Positions 3,770-16,049 of a stretch of DNA of 64,000 nucleotides are shown piece after piece. The position numbers and the translations under genes were made by a program. Position 1 is the stretch's first letter, and each line of letters begins with the position of its first letter. The notes beneath the pieces were generated by a model that saw only the letters and a program-made list of their open reading frames with translations, made no database searches and was not told where the DNA came from. The stretch is from contig JAXLYG010000005.1 of the NCBI GenBank assembly GCA_046351535.1, positions 357,334-421,333 of the forward strand. The letters are read 5' to 3'. Source of the DNA: Polyangiales bacterium. Its GTDB lineage: Bacteria; Myxococcota_A; Polyangia; Polyangiales; Ga0077539.

Positions 3770-5002
3770 ATGCGGCTGCACTCGCTCACACTGACGAACA
3801 TCGGCCCCTTCGACGAAGCGAGCATCGAGTTCCTCGCGGACGGTGACACCTCGGGCAACGTGACGCTGCTCACGGGCGCGAACGGCACCGGCAAGACGAT
3901 CATCCTCGACGCGATTCGAACGCTCTTCGGCTCCGAGTTCGCGACTGTGGAGCGCGACATCTGGCGCAAGGGCGCAGTCGGCGGGATTCGCGGTGACTTC
4001 TCGGAGCCCGTCGAAGGCCGCCAGTCTCGGTTCTCCATCGGCGTCGGGCCCGCCGCGCCTCCGTACTACCCCGTTGGCTTGTCGGTGGAGGTCGCGACCA
4101 ACGTCGGGCGCGGCGCACACCCTCCCCCGTGGGTCGTCGACTTCTGGCGCTCTCAACTGGCGAACGATGCGTACGCCATTACCTCACTCGCAGCGATCAA
4201 TCACCGCGCGCTGTTCAAGGGAGCGCTTCAGGGGGTATCGAGCAACGCGTCGGTGACGCAGCTCCTCTGTCACTTCGACTACCTGCGCGACAGTCGCAAC
4301 GCCCGCGAGCGCGCCACGGGGGAGGCGCTCTACGCGCTCGCGCAGAAGATCGTGCAGATGAGCCTCCTCGACGGCGAGCTCAAGGAGATCGAGCGGCTCA
4401 CCTTCACGCCCATCGTCCGTCAGGGCGGGCACGACGTTCCGCTCGCGAGCATCAGCAGCGGCAACGCCTACCTCGTGCAGCGCATGATCACGCTCCTCGG
4501 GCGCATGTACTCGCTCCACGTGCTGCGTGACGGCGACCCCGCGAAGCTCCACGAGGCTTCTGGACTGCTCCTCATCGACGAGGCCGAGAACCACCTTCAC
4601 CCCTCGTGGCAGAAGAGCCTGCTGCCCAATGTGAGAGAGGTCTTTCCCAACCTCCAGATCATCGCCGCGACGCACTCACCCTTCGTCGTGGCGTCGGTGC
4701 GCGACGCGCGCGTCTACGTCTGCCACTACGACCCGACCACGCGTCGCACGACGGTGCGCGAAGAGACCGCGATCTATCAGAACAAGCCCGTCGACGAGAT
4801 CCTCATGTCGCCCGCGTTCGATCAGACGGCGCCCTTTGGAGAACCCATCAGCACGCTCCTCGCAGATCGCCGCCTCGCGATGGCGAAGGGAGACGTTGCG
4901 ACGCGCGACGAGATCGAACGGCGGCTCGTCGATCTCAACCCCACGTACTTCGGCTACCTCGACCTCGATCGGAAGATCGAGGCGCTGCGCAAGGCGGGCT
5001 GA
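3770..5002 (+). CDS. ABC-type AAA ATPase (AAA_15/AAA_21-like), Septu PtuA-like
   Basis: Walker A GANGTGKT at N-terminus, Walker B LLLIDEAENHLHP, and ATHSP motif near C-terminus. Stop overlaps the start of the HNH gene by 1 nt. Confidence 0.8.
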   Translation: MRLHSLTLTNIGPFDEASIEFLADGDTSGNVTLLTGANGTGKTIILDAIRTLFGSEFATVERDIWRKGAVGGIRGDFSEPVEGRQSRFSIGVGPAAPPYYPVGLSVEVATNVGRGAHPPPWVVDFWRSQLANDAYAITSLAAINHRALFKGALQGVSSNASVTQLLCHFDYLRDSRNARERATGEALYALAQKIVQMSLLDGELKEIERLTFTPIVRQGGHDVPLASISSGNAYLVQRMITLLGRMYSLHVLRDGDPAKLHEASGLLLIDEAENHLHPSWQKSLLPNVREVFPNLQIIAATHSPFVVASVRDARVYVCHYDPTTRRTTVREETAIYQNKPVDEILMSPAFDQTAPFGEPISTLLADRRLAMAKGDVATRDEIERRLVDLNPTYFGYLDLDRKIEALRKAG

Positions 5003-5655
5003 TGGTTCCGCTGGTGCGTGGGCCGACGCCGCGTCCCCTCGCGGAGCACGGGGCTCGTTGGACCTTGGCCTTCGTCGCGGAGCGCGCCGCGAACCCGTCG
5101 AAGCGTCCGCTCCGGGAGCGTTATGGCCACCCCGAGGTGCGCGTCGAGCTTCGTCGCATGAGCCTGGGGAAGTGCTTCTACTGCGAGCGCAAGCACACCG
5201 ACGGCGAGCAGGAGGTCGACCACCACATCGAGGTCGCCGAGCGCCCCGACCTCGCGTTCGCGTGGGAGAATCTCTATCTGTCGTGTAGAGCGTGCAACGG
5301 GAAGGCGCCGAACACGCAGATCCCCGTCGCCTCGTGCGTCGATCCGTGTGCTCCGAGCGCCTCGCCGAACGCGCATCTGACGTTTCACGGCGAGTGCATC
5401 CAACCGCGCGCGAACTCCTCGCACGGGCGCGAGACCATCGAGAAGTACAGGCTCCATCGCGATGAGCTCGACCTCGCGCGCGCTCGCGCGCTCCGCGAGT
5501 TCGATGGGGCGTACATCGCCGTGCTGCGCAGCATGAACGCGTCGGGCCGAAAGGAGCCTTCCGTCGAGGAGCGAGAGTTTCTTCGCGACTTCGCGGACCC
5601 AGCGCGCCCGTTCTCACTGATGATGGCGACGTATCTGAAGCGCCTGGGACTGTGA
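5002..5655 (+). CDS. HNH endonuclease (retron-type/TIGR02646-like), Septu PtuB-like
   Basis: CFYCERKHTDGEQEVDHHIEVAERPDLAFAWENLYLSCRACNGKA is an HNH motif with paired Cys and His/Asn catalytic residues. ATG overlaps the ATPase stop (TGATG). Confidence 0.8.
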   Translation: MVPLVRGPTPRPLAEHGARWTLAFVAERAANPSKRPLRERYGHPEVRVELRRMSLGKCFYCERKHTDGEQEVDHHIEVAERPDLAFAWENLYLSCRACNGKAPNTQIPVASCVDPCAPSASPNAHLTFHGECIQPRANSSHGRETIEKYRLHRDELDLARARALREFDGAYIAVLRSMNASGRKEPSVEEREFLRDFADPARPFSLMMATYLKRLGL

Positions 5656-5688: not shown

Positions 5689-6606
5689 TCACCCCGCGTC
5701 GGGGTCGTACCGGATGTCTCCGCTGTGTGACGGATCGTAGCCCGGCACGCCCGACAGCATCGCGCGCAGCTCCGCCGACTGCGCCACCTCGCAGAGCCGC
5801 ACCACCGCGGGCGTGCCGAGATCGGCGCTCCGCACGAGCAGCCCGTAGCGCTCGCTGGCGATCAACTGGAACGCGAGCCCGAAGCGCGCCGCCAGCGCGT
5901 GCGTCGTGAGGCCCACCTCGGCCTCCGCGCGCTGCACGGTCTCGCAGACCTCCGCGTGCGACGCGCACACGATCGCGCCCGAGAGCGCCTGCTTGTGATC
6001 GACCTTCGCGGCGCGCAGCGCTTCGATCAGGTGACCGTACACGCCCGCCGTGCTCGGCCTCGACGCGACCTGAACGCGATGCAGCCCCTTGAGCGAGGGA
6101 AAGCGCTCGCCCGGCCGCACCGCGAGACCCACCTCGCGCTCCACGAGGTGAATCCGCGCGAGCCTCGCCTCGCCCGCGCGCGACGGAGGGAGGCCGCCGT
6201 GACTGCCCGCGGCCGTCACCATCCCCTCGGCGAGCCAGCGGAGCGCGAGCGAGCGGTCGGATTGCACGAAGCCCCACAGCGTCTTTGCGCCCGCGTTGAG
6301 GCGCTCCATCAGCATGCGCACCACCACGTCTCCGTTCGCGGCGAGGAGCGGCGGCGGGCGCGCGGAGACCTCGTCTGCGACCGGACGCACGCTCGCAGAG
6401 GGCGCTTCGGGGAGCGCCTCGGCGCCGCGCGACCAGGCCAGCACCTCGTCGCGGCGAAAGCGCCACTCGCCGCCGACGCGACGTCCGGGCAGTCCGCGCT
6501 TGAGCAGGCGGTAGATGTGCTTCGGGTGCACGCGGAGAAGCTCCGCGACGTCGCGACTCGTGAGCAGCGGCGCGTCGTCGGTGTGCGTCGTCATCGCGCG
6601 GAGCAT
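5689..6606 (-). CDS. Transcriptional regulator: excisionase/MerR-type HTH plus PBP-like (molybdate-binding-like) substrate-binding domain
   Basis: LLTSRDVAELLRVHPKHIYRLLKRG HTH at N-terminus. The real start is probably the internal ATG at 6606 (MLRAMTTH); the longer ORF to 6942 is Arg-rich. Divergent from the transporter gene. Confidence 0.6.
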   Translation of the reverse strand: MLRAMTTHTDDAPLLTSRDVAELLRVHPKHIYRLLKRGLPGRRVGGEWRFRRDEVLAWSRGAEALPEAPSASVRPVADEVSARPPPLLAANGDVVVRMLMERLNAGAKTLWGFVQSDRSLALRWLAEGMVTAAGSHGGLPPSRAGEARLARIHLVEREVGLAVRPGERFPSLKGLHRVQVASRPSTAGVYGHLIEALRAAKVDHKQALSGAIVCASHAEVCETVQRAEAEVGLTTHALAARFGLAFQLIASERYGLLVRSADLGTPAVVRLCEVAQSAELRAMLSGVPGYDPSHSGDIRYDPDAG

Positions 6607-6829
6607 CGCCCCAAATCCACCCCGGCAGGAACCTCCGACGTGTGGGCCTCGAAAGGAAACCAGTTGCAACGAGATGGAACCATCGGTAGCAACGCGGGAG
6701 CTCAATGAGACCTTTCGGGCCACCAACGCCTCTCCGCGCGCGTCCGCCCGGCGCCTCGCGTGGGCCGCTGTCACCCGCCCGCGCCGCGCACCCCTCGACG
6801 CGCGTCTGCGACTCGATGCGCGAACCCCG

Positions 6830-8026
6830 GTGGCACCGTTGAACTCGTCGAACCTCTCCTCCAGGCTCCGCTTCGATCGGCACGAGCTCGCGGGCGCCTT
6901 CGGAGACATCGGGACCGACCTCCCGCTGCTCATCGCGCTCATCGCGACGTGCGGACTCGACGCGGCGAGCGTCTGCGTGATGTTCGGGCTGCTCCAGATC
7001 GCGACGGGGATCCTCTACGGGATCCCCATGCCCGTGCAGCCGCTCAAGGCAATGGCCGCGATCATGCTCGCGCAGCGCCTCTCCGCGGGGACCCTCGCGG
7101 GCGGCGGTCTCGTCATCGGCGTGTCGATGTTCCTCCTCGCGGTGACGGGGCTCCTCGACACGCTCGTTCGCGTGGTGCCCAGGGAGGTCGTCCGCGGGAT
7201 CCAGTTCGGCCTCGGCGTGACCCTCGCGACGCTCGCGCTCAAGGAGTACGCGCGCGCCGACGGCCTCCCCGGCTACGCGCTCGCGCTCGTGTCGGTGGTC
7301 GCGCTGCTCGTGTTGCGGAGGCAGCAGCGCGTGCCCGCGCCGCTCGTCGTGATGGCCCTCGGGCTCGCCTACGCCGTCACGGTGAAGCTCGGCGACGGGT
7401 CGTTCCACGGCGCCGTGGGGCTGCGGCTGCCGTCGTTCCACACGCCGACGCGCGCGGAGATCACGCAGGGGGCGCTGCTCCTCGCGCTCCCGCAGATCCC
7501 CTTGTCGCTTGGCAACTCGGTGATCGCCACGAGCCAGACGACGCGAGACCTCTTTCCCCAGCGCGCGGTGTCGGTGCGAAAGATCGGCTTCACCTACGCG
7601 GCGATGAACCTCATCGCGCCGTGGTTCGGTGGGGTTCCCGTCTGTCACGGCTGCGGCGGCCTCGTGGGCTTCTACGGCTTCGGCGCGCGCACGGGGGGAG
7701 CGCCCGTGCTCTACGGCGCGATGTACCTCGTCCTCGGTCTCTTCTTCGCGCCCGGGTTCGCGCGCGTCGTCCACGTCTTTCCGATGCCGCTGCTCGGCGT
7801 GGTGCTGCTCTTCGAAGCCGTCGCGCTCATGACGCTCGTGCGCGACGTGGCGAACGAGTCGAGCTCGCTCTGGGTCGCGCTCGCGGTCGCCGCCGTGGTG
7901 GTGGGGCTCCCCTACGGCTACCTCGTGGGCCTCGTCGCGGGCACGCTCATCGTCTGGGGCGTGCGCCGCGGATGGGTGAAGACCCCCTCGATCGCCGTCT
8001 CCGACACGACGCCGTCGACGGGGTGA
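6830..8026 (+). CDS. MOT1/SulP-like family membrane permease (putative molybdate/sulfate transporter)
   Basis: Hallmark N-terminal motif ELAGAFGDIGTDLPL (MOT1-type GDLGT). About 10 predicted TM helices. Start is uncertain: GTG 6830 or ATG 6671. Confidence 0.55.
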   Translation: MAPLNSSNLSSRLRFDRHELAGAFGDIGTDLPLLIALIATCGLDAASVCVMFGLLQIATGILYGIPMPVQPLKAMAAIMLAQRLSAGTLAGGGLVIGVSMFLLAVTGLLDTLVRVVPREVVRGIQFGLGVTLATLALKEYARADGLPGYALALVSVVALLVLRRQQRVPAPLVVMALGLAYAVTVKLGDGSFHGAVGLRLPSFHTPTRAEITQGALLLALPQIPLSLGNSVIATSQTTRDLFPQRAVSVRKIGFTYAAMNLIAPWFGGVPVCHGCGGLVGFYGFGARTGGAPVLYGAMYLVLGLFFAPGFARVVHVFPMPLLGVVLLFEAVALMTLVRDVANESSSLWVALAVAAVVVGLPYGYLVGLVAGTLIVWGVRRGWVKTPSIAVSDTTPSTG

Positions 8027-8036
8027 GGGGGCGTGC

Positions 8037-8897
8037 TCACCGACCGCTGTTGACGTAGCGCCAGCCGAAGCGCCCCTTGATGCAGAGGTGTCCGTTGGTC
8101 ACCGACGACTCGACGGGCGACGTGACCTTCACCACCTGATCGTCTTGCACGTGCAGCGTCACGGCGCAGCCGACGCCGCAGTACGGGCACACCGTCGTGG
8201 TCGCCGTCTGCCGCTCGGGCGCCCAGGTCCCCTCGGCGCGCATCCGATGCTCGTCGCGGAACATCAGCGCTCCCGTGGGACACACCCCCACGCAGTTGCC
8301 GCAGAACACGCACGCCGACGCGGGGAGGCCCACTTCGAACTCCGTCGCGATGCGCGCTTCGAAGCCGCGTCCCGCGACGGAGATCGCGAAGGTGTTCTGC
8401 GCGTCGTCGCCGCACGCCTCGACGCATTTGTAACAGAGCACGCACTTCGAATAGTCGCGGACGAAGAGGTCGTTGTCGTCCTTCACGGGCTGCGCGACGG
8501 TGGCGCCGTCGAAGCGTTCGGGGGCGGCGCCGTAGCGCGCTCCCCACGTGCGCAGCGTGTCGGAGAGGGCCGTGTCGACGGACGACGCGAGGAGCTCGAT
8601 CACGACCTTGCGCGAGACGCGCACGCGCTCGGAGTCGGTGCGGACGACCATGCCGGGCTCGGCCTTTCGCGAGCACGACGCGACGAGGGTGCGAGCGCCT
8701 TCGAGCTCGACGACGCACACGCGGCACACGTTCACGGGCGTGAGGTTGTCGGCCTGACAGAGCGTCGGCACGTCGATGCCGAGGGCCCTGCACGCGTCGA
8801 GGATGGTCGCCCCTTCGGGGACGCGCGCGACCCTGCCGTCGATGCTGAGCTCGACGACGCGATCGACGGAGTGCGTGACGATGGGGAGATGCTTCAT
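8037..8897 (-). CDS. NuoG-N-terminal/HoxU-like iron-sulfur subunit (2Fe-2S, two 4Fe-4S, MopB-type 4Fe-4S) of NAD-linked formate dehydrogenase
   Basis: 2Fe-2S ferredoxin Cys pattern, CxxCxxCxxxCP motifs, and C-terminal CPYCGVGC...GHLCIKGRFGW (the N-terminal cluster domain normally fused to FdhA). Confidence 0.8.
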   Translation of the reverse strand: MKHLPIVTHSVDRVVELSIDGRVARVPEGATILDACRALGIDVPTLCQADNLTPVNVCRVCVVELEGARTLVASCSRKAEPGMVVRTDSERVRVSRKVVIELLASSVDTALSDTLRTWGARYGAAPERFDGATVAQPVKDDNDLFVRDYSKCVLCYKCVEACGDDAQNTFAISVAGRGFEARIATEFEVGLPASACVFCGNCVGVCPTGALMFRDEHRMRAEGTWAPERQTATTTVCPYCGVGCAVTLHVQDDQVVKVTSPVESSVTNGHLCIKGRFGWRYVNSGR

Positions 8898-9300
8898 GAG
8901 AGGCCCCCTCCCCGTCCCTCCCCCGCGAAGCGGGGAGGGATGCTGAGAGGCCCCCTCCCCGTCCCTCCCCCGCGAAGCGGGAGGTGCCTGTTGGTAGCTG
9001 GCATGCCCTCACCCCGGCCCTCTCCCGCCGAGGCGGGAGAGGGAGGCTCGGCGAGAGGCAGCGGCGCACGGCGCCCAGGCACCTCGTTGCATCGAAATCA
9101 CCTCTCGCCTCAGCCCCTCGCCCGTTCGCACGTCTGCTCGCACGTCTGCCCACTCCTTCGCCCGCTCGCCCGCCCGCACCCCCGCGCCCTCGTGGCACCC
9201 GTGCGCTCCCTCTCCCGCCTCTGGCGGGGAGCAGGGCGGGGCATTCCAGCTACCAACAGGCACCCTCTCCCGCTTCGCGGGGAGGGACGAGAGGGGCTCG
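8898..9300. repeat. Cluster of REP-like palindromic elements forming a large inverted-repeat structure (MITE-like)
   Basis: Two tandem copies of gagaggccccctccccgtccctcccccgcgaagcggggaggg (8899-8984). tgcctgttggtagctggcatgccc (8985-9008) is inverted at 9238-9262. Further palindromes ctctcccgccgaggcgggagaggg and ccctctcccgcttcgcggggaggg lie on the right arm. Confidence 0.65.
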
Positions 9301-11109
9301 ACGCCCCTCCAGGCCAGAGCGCGAGCTTCACGACGGCGGACTCCACGGCGCTCGACGCGGTCTGTCCGAGGCCGCAGATCGACGCGTCGCGCATGCACGC
9401 GGAGAGCTCTCGCAGCAGCGCGAGGTCTGTGTCTCGCTGCGCGCGTCGATCGGGGCGCGCGAGGCGCTCGATGAGCTCGTGCTGGCGCACGGTGCCCACG
9501 CGACAGGGCGTGCACTGGCCGCACGACTCCTCGCGGAAGAAGCGCGCGATGCGCGCGAGCACGGGGCCGATGGAGACCGAATCGTCGAGCACGAGCACCA
9601 CGCCCGAGCCCAGCGTCGTGCCGCGCGCGCGCGCGTCTTCGAGGGTGAGCGGCATGTCGAGGTGCTCGGCCGTGACGAAGGTGCCCGCGGCGCCGCCGAG
9701 CAGGATCGCCTGCAGCGAGCGGCCCTCGCGGAGCCCGCCCGCGGCCTCGACGAGCGCGCCGAGCGTGACGCCGAAGGGCAGCTCGTACACGCCCGGCGCG
9801 CGCACGCCGAGACGCAGAAGAGCCTCGTGCCGGGCGATCCCTTCGTGCCGAGCGCGCGGTACGCGGCGGCGCCCTCGCGCACGATGACGGGCACGTTGAG
9901 CAGCGTCTCGACGTTGTGAATGAGCGTCGGCTGACCGAAGAGGCCTTCGTCGACGGGAAAGGGCGGCTTCGTCCGGGGCTCTCCGCGGTAGCCCTCGATG
10001 GAGTTGAGCAGCGCCGTCTCTTCGCCGCAGATGTACGCGCCCGCGCCGATCCTGAGGTCGATGTCGAAGCGCGCGCCGCGCCCCATCACGTCGTCGCCGA
10101 GGAGGCCCATCGACCGCGCCTGCGCGATGGCGTTCGCGAGGCGCTCGCGGGCCAGCGGGTACTCGCCGCGGAGGTAGATCCAGCCCTTCTCGGCGCCGAC
10201 GGTGACGCCCGCGAGGGTCATCGCTTCGACGAGCGCGAAGGGGTCGCCTTCGAGGAGCGCGCGGTCTTTGAACGTCCCGGGTTCAGACTCGTCGGCGTTG
10301 CAGACGACGTGCTTCACGCGGCCCGCGGCCTTCGCCACGGCCATCCACTTTCGCCCCGCGGGAAAGGCCGCGCCGCCGCGTCCCGAGAGCCCCGACTCGT
10401 CGAGCTCGCGCATCACCCACGCGGCGCCGACCTCGAATGCTCGACGGAGCGCCGCATAGCCGCCGTGCGCGCGGTACGCGTCGAGGCTCTGCGGGTCGAC
10501 CTCGCCCACGCGCGCGAGGAGCCTCACCGCGGAGCGATCGGTCTGCGGCGTCGGCGCGCGCTCGGGGATCGCGACGTGACGCGTTCGAAGCGCCGCGCGC
10601 ACCGACGCTTCGGTGGCGTGACCGAAGCTGCGTTCGAAGGGGCTCTCGCCCGCGGAGACGAGCATCGCCGCGGGCGCCTGCTCGCACATCCCGAGGCACG
10701 GCGAGCGGTGCCAGGTCGTCGCGGGGTCGTCGTGTGACGGCGCGCCGTGGTGTCCGACGGAGCGTTCGAGCGCGTGGCAGAGGTCCTCTGCGCCCGCGGC
10801 GAGGCAGGCGACGTCGTCGCAGACGTGCGCCACGACGGGGGGGCGCTCGGCGAGCGCGAAGAGCGCGTAGAAGCTCGCCACGCCGTAGGCCTCCGCGGGC
10901 GGAACGTGGAGCTTCTGGCACGCGTAGCCGAGGGCGCTCGGAGAGATCCACCCGAAGCGCCCTTGAATGGCGTGGAGCGTCGGGAGGAGGAGGTGACGGC
11001 GTGCGCGCGCGCTTCGAAGCGAGACGCGGTCATCGAGGGGGCCGAGCGAGGCGTCGATGAGGGCGCGCTCGTCGTCGGTGGCTTCGGTTGCGATGGGGCG
11101 GAGGTCCAC
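9110..11109 (-). pseudogene. NuoE-NuoF fusion (HoxF/FdsGB-like NAD(H)-binding diaphorase subunit) with an apparent frameshift near 9805-9840
   Basis: NuoE-like 2Fe-2S region, then NuoF motifs (GRGGAAFPAGRKW, CNADESEPGTFKDR, GAGAYICGEETALLNS...). Frame breaks after GTRLFCVS and resumes in ORF 9110..9805 with RAPGVYELPFGV...ESCGQCTPCRVG...ICGLGQTA. The C-terminus reads into the REP cluster. Confidence 0.7.
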
Positions 11110-11133
11110 GGGGGGCGCTTCTGCGGGTGTGAG

Positions 11134-13047
11134 TCAGACGGCGGTTGCAGACGCTTCGGAGGCGGCGCGCTCGACGCGAACGGCGGCGGCCTTGAACTCC
11201 GCGGTGCCCGAGCGGGGGTCCGTCGCGTCGATCGTGAGCGCGTTCGTGTCGACCTCGTCGGGAAAGTGAAAGGTCATGAACACGAGCCCGTCGCGCAGCC
11301 CGTGATCGACGCGGAGGGGCGCGACCACGGAGCCTCTGCGAGAGACGACGCGCACGCGCTCTCCGTCACGGAGGCCGAGGCGCTTCGCGTCGCCGGGAGA
11401 CATGTCGACGGTCTCGCCGCGACGGAGCGGAGACGAGAGCGCCGCGGTCTGCACGCCGGTGTTGTACGAGTCGAGCCGACGGCCCGTCGTGAGCGTGAGG
11501 GGGAACTCCGGCGAGAGGTGCTCCACGGGGCCCTCGTTGAGCACCACGGAGAACGGCGCCGCGGGGCCCACCCTCGGCTCGGCCCAGAGCCGCGCGTGAA
11601 GGAAGGGCGTCCCCGGGTGCGTCTCGTCGGGGCACGGCCACTGGATCCCGCCGAGCTCCTCGAGCCGCGCGTAGCTCATCCCGTGGTGCATGGGGCTCAG
11701 CGATCGCATCTCGTCCCAGAGCGCTTCGGGCGATGCCGGTCCGAGGTCGCGCCCCATCCTCCGCGCGATCTCCGCGATGATCGTGACGTCGTCCTTCGCG
11801 CTCCCCGGCGGACGCATCGCGGCCCTGACCCGTTGCACCCTGCGCTCGGAGTTGGTGACCGTCCCCTCGCTCTCGCTCCAGCTCGACGAAGCCGGGAGCA
11901 CGACGTGGGCGAGCTCCGCGGTGGCCGTTCGAAACACGTCTTGCACGACGACGAAATCGACGCCGCCGATGAGCCGCCGCGCGCGGTGCCCGTCGGCCTC
12001 GCTCTGCGCGGGGTTCTCGCCGATGATGTAGAGCGCGCGCATCTCGCCGCGCTCCATCGCGTGGAACATCTCCGTGAGGTGCCAGCCCTTCTTCGGCGGG
12101 ATGGTGCAGCCCCAGAGCGCGCCGTAGCGGCCGCGCACGGCGTCATCTTCGACGTCTTGAAAGCCAGGGAGCTTGTGCGGGAGCGCGCCCATGTCTCCGC
12201 CGCCCTGGACGTTGTTCTGTCCGCGCAGGGGGTTGAGCCCCGCGCCCCAGCGCCCGACGTTCCCCGTGGCGAGGCCGAGGTTGATGAGCGAGAGCACGTT
12301 GTCGACGGCGTTGTGGTGCTCGGTGATCCCGAGCGTCCAGCAGATCATCGCGCGGTCGGCCTTCGCGTACTCCCGCGCCATGCGCGTGATGAGCTCCCGC
12401 GGGACCCCCGTCACCTGCTCGGCGCGCTCCAGCGTCCACGGGAGCACCGAGGCCCGCCACGCTTCGAAGCCCACCGTCGCGTTACGGATGAAGCTCTCTC
12501 GCACCAGGCCCTCGGTCACGATCACGCGACCCACCGCGCACGCGAGCGCGATGTCGCTGCCCACCCGCAGCGGGAGCCACCCCTCGGCCCAGCGCGCCGA
12601 CGAGGTCTCCCGCGGATCGACGACGTAGAGCCTCGCGCCGCGGTGCACCGCCTTGAGCACGTGGTGAAAGAAGATGGGGTGCGTCTCGCGGGCGTTGGAG
12701 CCCCAGAGGATCACCACGTCGGTGTCCTCGACCTCGCGGTACGAGCTCGTGCTCCCGCCCGCTCCGAATACCGTCGCCAGACCGACGACGCTCGGGGCGT
12801 GTCAGGTTCTGTTGCAACTGTCGATGTTGTTGCTGCCCATCACCGCGCGGGTGAACTTCTGCGCGAGGTAGTTCACCTCGTTGGTCGCCTTCGAACAGCT
12901 GAACACCCCGAAGGCGTTGCCGCCGTGATTGTCGCGCGCCGCGCGAAAGCCCTCGGCGACGCGCGTGAGGGCCTCGTCCCAGGTCGCGGGTCGAAGCGCG
13001 CCGTCGGCGTCGCGAACGAGGGGCTCGGTGATGCGTGCGAGGGTCAT
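11134..13047 (-). CDS. fdhA: Formate dehydrogenase catalytic (molybdopterin) subunit, selenocysteine-containing (in-frame TGA near 12802-12804)
   Basis: Two ORFs (12802..13047 and 11134..12717) joined by TGA in the conserved motif NIDSCNRT-U-HAPSVVGLATVFG (compare E. coli FdhF CARV-U-HGPSVAGL). Molybdopterin oxidoreductase motifs follow. Strong AAGGAG RBS before the ATG at 13047. Confidence 0.85.
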
Positions 13048-13352
13048 GGAGGCTCCTTCGAGGGGCGATCCTACACCCGCGCAAAGCCCTGAAAAGAAGC
13101 GATTCCCTGACGCGGCAGGTCAACCCGTGACGCGACCCTCTCGGACCCATCGGAGGGACCCGACGCCCCCGGCGACCCGCGTGACATCCGCCAGAAGGGC
13201 TCGAACCCCACCATGAAAGGGGCGTATCGTGCGCGGGCGGCGCTTCGTGCGTGAACACGGAGCGCGCGGTGGCGGGCACATCAACGCACGGCTTTCTCTG
13301 TGAAACGGTCCCGATCTTGCGAACGATCGCGCCCCGCAAGGAGAGGTTCCCG

Positions 13353-16045
<2,693 letters not shown>

Positions 16046-16049
<4 letters not shown>

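Follow-up and report, generated by a model that had tools for sequence, protein, structure and literature searches.

We analysed a 64,000-nucleotide stretch of contig JAXLYG010000005.1 from a Polyangiales bacterium (positions 357,334 to 421,333; hereafter the window) and observed three co-directional genes on its minus strand between positions 8037 and 13047. In order of transcription, these encode a catalytic formate dehydrogenase subunit (the fdhA core), a NuoE-NuoF fusion (nuoEF) and a small iron-sulfur (Fe-S) protein. An earlier note, made by a model from the same DNA, had placed the three genes here with the Fe-S gene last and had given fdhA a strong AAGGAG ribosome-binding site of its own, and reading of the sequence and its open reading frames (ORFs) confirmed both. 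We read the locus as encoding a cytoplasmic NAD(H)-linked formate dehydrogenase that contains selenocysteine (Sec) and a molybdenum or tungsten bis-(pyranopterin guanine dinucleotide) cofactor (Mo/W-bis-PGD), and that consists of three polypeptides with a naturally split alpha subunit. Judging from the sequence, we put the probability of this reading at roughly 0.8. The features of the locus are collected in Table 1.

Table 1 Features of the split formate dehydrogenase locus (positions within the window).
Feature	Position	Strand	Basis
fdhA core (catalytic Mo/W-bis-PGD subunit without the FS0 [4Fe-4S] domain)	11134..13047	-	PF00384 and PF01568 only; TIGR01591 positions 52-672
AAGGAG ribosome-binding site, 5 nt upstream of the fdhA-core ATG	13053..13058	-	sequence reading
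In-frame TGA, read as the Sec82 codon	12802..12804	-	context CNRT-U-HAPSV; TGA in 67/67 related loci
SECIS-like hairpin with GGUCU apical loop	12764..12795	-	fold and covariation over 63 distinct sequences
nuoE-nuoF fusion (NADH/FMN diaphorase subunit), native extent; frameshift near 9809	9299..11109	-	Pfam; L086 orthologue
4-nt deletion site relative to L086, nuoF frame shifted	9806..9812	-	pairwise alignment
401-bp insertion at the nuoEF/Fe-S gene junction	8898..9298	-	absent from L086 and L092; present in L087
Fe-S subunit, 286 aa: NuoG/FdsA-N-terminal module plus FS0	8037..8897	-	Pfam, NCBIfam, 6tg9_A match
FS0 (Molybdop_Fe4S4) domain at the C terminus of the Fe-S subunit	8046..8204	-	PF04879; TIGR01591 positions 1-50

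Catalytic core, iron-sulfur subunit and diaphorase

The fdhA core comprises 637 codons including Sec82. A Pfam scan returned Molybdopterin (PF00384, residues 5-429, 3.7e-68) and Molydop_binding (PF01568, residues 517-621, 9.9e-29) and no Molybdop_Fe4S4 domain (PF04879), and the same was true of the core in all related loci. Against the Fdh-alpha model TIGR01591 the core scored 651.4 bits, just under the cut-off of 666.25, because the first 51 model positions sit on the other protein. Its active site consists of U82-H83 and of R275 within PLRGQNNVQG, which align to U140/H141/R333 of FdhH. The best solved match was FdhF of the hydrogen-dependent CO2 reductase (HDCR) of T. kivui (532 bits), followed by E. 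coli FdhH (470 bits) and FdsA (441 bits). The core thus has the domains and the U-H...R residues of a Mo/W-bis-PGD formate dehydrogenase alpha subunit, and FS0 is not part of the polypeptide that carries the Mo domain.

The missing domain is encoded by the last gene. The Fe-S subunit contains a Fer2_4 domain (residues 13-89), two ferredoxin-type 4Fe-4S motifs and, at residues 232-284 of 286, Molybdop_Fe4S4 (E 1.2e-18); it therefore ends with the cluster domain that normally stands at the N terminus of FdhA, as the earlier note had claimed. The C-terminal end reads 'GHLCIKGRFGWRYVNSGR*', with the stop eight residues past KGRFGW. The predicted ligands are Cys47/58/61/75 for the 2Fe-2S cluster, Cys152/155/158/162 and Cys196/199/202/206 for the two 4Fe-4S clusters, and Cys237/240/244/272 for FS0. 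No curated family fits this protein, the best NCBIfam matches lying far under their cut-offs.

One cluster of FdsA has no counterpart here, a point that had escaped the earlier note. Pfam did not find the His-Cys3 cluster domain (PF10588) in the window's Fe-S subunit, in which ELLASSVD replaces H-x3-C-x2-C-x5-C, and a regular expression for this motif matched 0 of 120 family members. PF10588 is present in all fused relatives examined and absent from the split family, and the sequences indicate that the His-Cys3 (A4) cluster of FdsA is lost in the latter. In the R. capsulatus enzyme (RcFDH), A4 lies off the pathway from Mo to flavin mononucleotide (FMN), at the FdsA-FdsA dimer interface (PMC7171172). 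The electron chain should therefore survive its loss, and the loss argues against a dimer of the Rc type. Many family Fe-S proteins carry a 20-30-aa insertion, 'P..P...GERDAA.PGHHH.P', where the His-Cys3 domain was lost (alignment A1, columns about 165-195, corresponding to window residues about 128-132); the window protein is without it. The remaining cluster ligands and K274, in C-I-K-G, are invariant across the family alignment. We take K274 to be the equivalent of FdhH Lys44, the bridge between FS0 and the pterin in the FdhH structure. Since K274 is on the Fe-S subunit, the relay lysine would be supplied to the core in trans.

The earlier note had proposed aligning the two proteins to see whether they tile on a single alpha subunit, and alignment showed that they do. 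Positions 1-50 of the 672 in TIGR01591 correspond to Fe-S residues 235-284 and positions 52-672 to core residues 4-625; likewise, residues 25-303 of R. capsulatus FdsA (6tg9_A, 958 aa) correspond to Fe-S residues 15-282 and residues 308-933 to core residues 5-627. From this tiling it follows that the alpha subunit is cut in the short linker that joins FS0 to the Mo domain. Among the solved formate dehydrogenases returned by sequence searches none was split, all keeping both parts in one chain, and no description of an FS0-split formate dehydrogenase was found in the full-text literature (subscription-only literature lay outside the scope). The gene order is permuted as well, as the earlier note had stated: core, EF, FeS here, compared to EF, (FeS-core) in fdsGBA.

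In order to determine whether this layout is real, the three window proteins were searched by tblastn against 85 related loci. The order core, nuoEF, FeS on one strand recurred in nearly every locus with enough upstream DNA, across several phyla, so that the layout is no artefact of this assembly. That a normal, fused fdsA was inverted or rearranged in this contig would find some basis in the repeat-rich insertion at the nuoEF/Fe-S junction, where short-read contigs of near-identical strains (L087, L090, L091) break; however, the same split and order are found in more than 60 independent assemblies, on multi-megabase contigs (L001, L016, L047, L063, L068) and in L086, a repeat-free locus 94% identical to ours. 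The artefact is thus refuted by synteny, with next to no chance left to it, and the split layout is biology. The exact tiling and this recurrence bear out a genuine split at a domain boundary. Relative to L086, the ratio of nonsynonymous to synonymous substitutions (dN/dS) amounts to 0.14 in the core, 0.12-0.13 in nuoEF and 0.06 in the Fe-S gene, which indicates purifying selection on all three.

The middle gene encodes the diaphorase. The frame-corrected translation from 11109 contains 2Fe-2S_thioredx (PF01257), Complex1_51K (PF01512), SLBB and NADH_4Fe-4S (PF10589), and scores 432 bits against nuoF_fam. An N1a-type 2Fe-2S site (Cys97/102/138/142) lies in the NuoE domain and an N3-type 4Fe-4S site (Cys530/533/536/579) in the NuoF domain. 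The fusion described in the earlier note was therefore correct in its domain content, and wrong in so far as the window holds no single intact ORF, a change of frame being needed near 9809; the intact orthologue in L086 has 605 aa. As in FdsABG-type enzymes, a NuoF-type FMN/NADH subunit and a NuoE-type 2Fe-2S domain are encoded with the alpha subunit, although the gene is frameshifted in the window. Pfam found no extra C-terminal Fer4 domains on NuoEF, which ends directly after NADH_4Fe-4S (residue 593 of about 605). NuoEF thus lacks the marks of Bfu or HylABC-FdhF enzymes (a HydB-type beta subunit with extra 2x[4Fe-4S] ferredoxin domains), and because the extra ferredoxin domains of the bifurcating Bfu enzymes are missing, simple NAD coupling is the likeliest mode.

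The earlier note saw in these genes a Hox-type diaphorase grafted onto a formate dehydrogenase. The architecture is formally analogous to HoxFU of NAD+-reducing [NiFe] hydrogenases, in which an E+F fusion flavoprotein is joined by a small NuoG-N-terminal Fe-S protein; the core is nearer to FdhF-type enzymes than to FdsA, and three loci carry EF-FeS without a core. However, HoxU has no MopB FS0 and serves a hydrogenase, not a Mo enzyme, whereas our Fe-S protein has FS0, finds its best solved match in the N terminus of R. capsulatus FdsA (6tg9_A residues 25-303, E 5e-46) and reaches only 135 bits against the HoxU equivalog NF005745 (cut-off 333). Nor did a HoxF-type diaphorase hold up, NuoEF scoring 367 bits against C. 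necator FdsB and 277 bits against H. thermoluteolus HoxF. No hydrogenase genes, the partners that would mark a HoxU, adjoin any locus whose gene calls were read. The likeness of the core to FdhF does not discriminate between graft and split, because the C-terminal 700 residues of RcFdsA are also most similar to FdhF (PMC7171172). Recruitment of a Hox-type module to an FdhF-type core is accordingly quite improbable, and splitting and permuting of an FdsA-type operon appears to fit better.

Several characterized enzymes are close to this one. NAD+-dependent FdsABG(D) of R. capsulatus (6tg9) and C. necator has the same cofactor chain and is collinear in sequence, the two window proteins together covering FdsA 25-933, and its diaphorase is of the NuoE/NuoF type with FMN, 4Fe-4S and 2Fe-2S. 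In contrast, its alpha subunit is one chain and ours is two; E and F are fused here, Sec stands in place of Cys386, and no fdsD was seen. M. extorquens FDH1 (Fdh1AB, 7e5z/7vw6) likewise has a NuoE-NuoF fusion as its beta subunit and a NuoG-like N terminus on alpha; its alpha is fused (989-995 aa) and uses W and Cys, and PF10588-type cluster motifs are retained in fused relatives. The FdhF-type enzymes (E. coli FdhH, 1aa6; T. kivui HDCR FdhF, 7qv7) share Sec-His...Arg and a comparable SECIS position and loop with the core, but hold FS0 and the relay Lys44 in their own chain (residues 1-60). A MopB catalytic unit spread over two polypeptides has a precedent in formylmethanofuran dehydrogenase (FwdB/FwdD and the M. 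wolfeii-type split; PMC7171172). There, however, it is domain IV at the C terminus that is detached, and not FS0 at the N terminus.

Selenocysteine and distribution of the family

The active-site codon is TGA in every related locus that spans the site (Table 1). It is followed by a hairpin resembling a selenocysteine insertion sequence (SECIS), in which a 7-bp upper stem begins 11 nt after the UGA and is joined to the GGUCU loop and a 5-bp lower stem. The loop does not vary among the 63 distinct sequences, and pairing in the upper helix reaches 95.9%; the exchanges in this stem (C-G to G-C, and U-G / C-G / U-A) are made via synonymous codons. Both marks of a selenoprotein, an in-frame UGA at a Cys/Sec position and a SECIS hairpin, are therefore present. 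Gene callers cut the core at this UGA into fragments of 81-86 aa and 525-551 aa (L001, L003, L086, L089), and the Fe-S subunit goes under '2Fe-2S iron-sulfur cluster-binding protein' or 'YjgC' in the sources, which amounts to systematic mis-annotation.

To assess distribution, one genome per species was scanned for relatives of the Fe-S protein. A close relative is encoded in at least 586 genomes, each standing for one species. The layout, which the earlier note had called unusual, is therefore not rare and belongs to a large conserved family. The best 80 of these carriers comprise about 40 Acidobacteriota, 11 Actinomycetota, 10 Chloroflexota, 6 Eremiobacterota/Vulcanimicrobiota, 3 Myxococcota, 2 Dormibacterota, 2 Planctomycetota and a few others. 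Carriers are mostly soil bacteria, and cluster look-ups for cultured carriers returned only members from metagenomes or metagenome-assembled genomes (MAGs). The 120 best Fe-S homologues are uniform: all measure 243-392 aa, share an identical domain list and end no more than 45 aa from FS0. Where gene calls were read (L001, L002/L003, L004, L086, L089, L092), nuoEF and the Fe-S gene share a 4-nt overlap; in four other loci (L021, L058, L076, L085) there is a gap between operon genes.

After clustering at 50%, about two full-length representatives stand for the whole family, with 67% and 57% identity to the query, and the next relatives beyond it are fused alpha subunits at 37-44% identity. This tight clade, as defined by clustering, suggests a single origin, possibly with spread between phyla. 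Two family members (P0143 and P0144) that extend beyond FS0 were considered as fused intermediates and rejected, their tails being Arg-rich read-through junk with no core sequence.

Proposed mechanism and origin, and the copy in this genome

In the assembly that we propose, the Fe-S subunit would bridge NuoEF and the core in a heterotrimer. The core would carry the pterin cofactor, Sec82, His83 and Arg275 and no Fe-S cluster of its own, and FS0 with the relay K274, at the C terminus of the Fe-S subunit, would dock, without a covalent link, on the core's N-terminal face and so rebuild MopB domain I. Electrons would then pass from formate to Mo/Sec, the pterin, FS0, the two 4Fe-4S clusters, the 2Fe-2S cluster, the N3-type 4Fe-4S cluster of NuoF, FMN and finally NAD+, with the N1a-type 2Fe-2S cluster of the NuoE domain off the pathway; in the reverse direction the enzyme would reduce CO2. 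The sequences directly show the domain content, the exact tiling, the conserved gene order and cluster ligands, the TGA with its SECIS-like hairpin and the purifying selection; how the three subunits assemble, which path the electrons take, the NAD specificity and the origin discussed next are the parts that we infer.

Relative to the canonical EF, (FeS-core), the order core, EF, FeS is circularly permuted. The simplest origin would be duplication of an fds-type operon in tandem, after which both ends were lost. A 1405-aa protein, P0140, contains two complete fused FdsA-like alpha subunits in tandem in a single ORF (Fer2_4...FS0...Mo, twice). It is the kind of duplicate that this model requires, and possibly an artefact of gene calling.

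Several observations weigh against our reading. All of the best 80 of the at least 586 carrier genomes are MAGs, and no intermediates of the duplication-deletion origin were found within the family. Three loci (L004, L006, L051) have nuoEF-FeS without an adjacent core in their flanks, so the partnership is not always in cis; the core may be unlinked there, or the diaphorase-FS0 module may serve another partner. In L004, fdhD lies about 5 kb upstream. An AlphaFold2 model of the Fe-S subunit alone, built from a 16-sequence alignment, was poor, its mean predicted local distance difference test (pLDDT) score being 58.9 and falling under 50 in the ferredoxin and FS0 regions. The 64-kb window itself contains no fdhD by targeted tblastn, and neither a tRNA of any kind (tRNA-Sec included) nor any other selenium gene was seen in it. 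Finally, this genome's copy carries two lesions that the earlier note had overlooked. Pairwise alignment shows a 4-nt deletion near 9809 (L086 ...GTGTCGGGCGGCGTG..., window ...GTCT----CGGCGTG...), by which nuoF is frameshifted, and the 401-bp insertion destroys the translational coupling of nuoEF and the Fe-S gene.

At the nuoF deletion site L086 reads LFCVSGGVRAPG, and in the window the two nuoEF frames appear as ORFs 9328..11109 and 9110..9805. Downstream of the shift dN/dS relative to L086 is 0.12. Because these codons are still under purifying selection, the lesion is either very recent or an error of the assembly consensus. A programmed -1 frameshift was rejected, since the reading frame is intact in relatives and the window differs from them by the loss of 4 nt. 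The insertion lies exactly where the stop of nuoEF and the start of the Fe-S gene ancestrally overlapped in GTGA. Its inverted-repeat arms are about 90 nt long, and its FeS end carries a 47-nt tandem duplication; its last base creates the FeS ATG, and it removes the nuoEF stop, so that the ORF continues to 9110. Close strains are polymorphic for it (Table 1), and short-read contigs of near-identical strains end 32 nt before the FeS start. We also considered the insertion as a multi-copy miniature inverted-repeat transposable element; there is no second copy in the window, and six metagenome matches to its 19-nt inverted-repeat core share the seed only.

Together, the frameshift and the insertion may impair expression in this genome. 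A stronger version holds that the operon is being inactivated here, as a young pseudo-operon of a family that is functional elsewhere: the nuoF deletion would be real, leaving no functional diaphorase, and the Fe-S gene would be uncoupled. The frameshift relative to L086, the loss of the nuoEF stop codon with the GTGA overlap, and the lack of fdhD in the window all speak for this. Set against them are the selection seen in nuoF past the shift, the intact core and Fe-S genes, the ATG recreated by the insertion behind a G-rich Shine-Dalgarno-like stretch, and a second sample (L087) that keeps the same insertion. We regard inactivation as a real possibility with the odds somewhat against it.

Genomic neighbourhood and significance

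Conserved-neighbour clustering was noisy owing to antisense ORFs in high-GC DNA, and neighbours were instead counted by targeted tblastn. The operon is flanked by FdhD, the sulfurtransferase that such enzymes require, in 21 related loci, by MobA in 9 and by formate-tetrahydrofolate ligase (FTHFS) in 5. The FTHFS neighbours raise the alternative that the enzyme is physiologically a CO2 reductase that feeds formate to FTHFS, in a reductive glycine or Wood-Ljungdahl-type pathway, and not a formate oxidiser. Sec-containing FdhF-type formate dehydrogenases are reversible catalysts, which is compatible with this role. However, most loci have no FTHFS link, the carriers are mostly MAGs of Acidobacteriota, Actinomycetota and Eremiobacterota from soil, and thermodynamically the NAD+/NADH couple is better suited to oxidising formate. 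We consider a physiological role as CO2 reductase improbable.

In the window, a putative molybdate transporter of the MOT1 family (PF16983; about 6800-8026, plus strand) adjoins the operon just downstream, convergent with the Fe-S gene and beside an HTH_17/PBP_like regulator (5689-6942, minus strand). Both were identified through the syntenic annotated relatives L086, L087, L090 and L092, in which MOT1 adjoins the operon as well. This neighbourhood suggests Mo-responsive control. Rfam, at gathering thresholds, found no molybdenum cofactor (Moco) riboswitch or other known RNA in the window, and a promoter/terminator scan was uninformative in this DNA of 72% GC. On the other side, a pyruvate phosphate dikinase gene (13251-16049, plus strand) is divergent from the operon and is also the neighbour in L086. 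Farther away, the plus strand carries a Septu anti-phage pair, composed of the AAA ATPase PtuA (3770-5002; PADLOC PDLC00309, E 3e-136) and the HNH nuclease PtuB (about 4999-5655; PDLC00337, E 2e-33); the pair is also found in L090 and L092.

We further considered, as a rather unlikely idea, that supplying FS0 in trans may be an adaptation tied to Sec and not a neutral fission, the core acting as a natural 'plug-in' catalytic cartridge. With the core separate and translated first, failed UGA decoding would free only an 81-aa peptide, and a roughly 360-aa four-cluster Fe-S fragment, able to poison the diaphorase, would thereby be avoided. The core could also take up Mo-bis-PGD and undergo sulfuration by FdhD before the Fe-S module docks. 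If this is true, the enzyme would be the first MopB enzyme with its proximal cluster and relay lysine from another subunit.

In conclusion, the subunit architecture, the strict link to Sec, the loss of A4 and the breadth in soil lineages are new, and the chemistry and all domains were already known; the enzyme is an architectural variant that leaves known formate dehydrogenase chemistry unchanged. The family would show that the proximal [4Fe-4S] cluster of a MopB enzyme and its pterin-contacting lysine can come in trans, which would be relevant to the modular design of CO2-reducing catalysts and to the maturation of these enzymes. All examined members use Sec, and this points to a dependence on selenium broader than expected among soil lineages that are presumably no strict anaerobes in the classical sense. 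Since the Fe-S subunit is misnamed and the core is cut at the UGA, the ability of abundant soil phyla (Acidobacteriota, Chloroflexota, Actinomycetota, Eremiobacterota) to oxidise formate is easily missed or misnamed.

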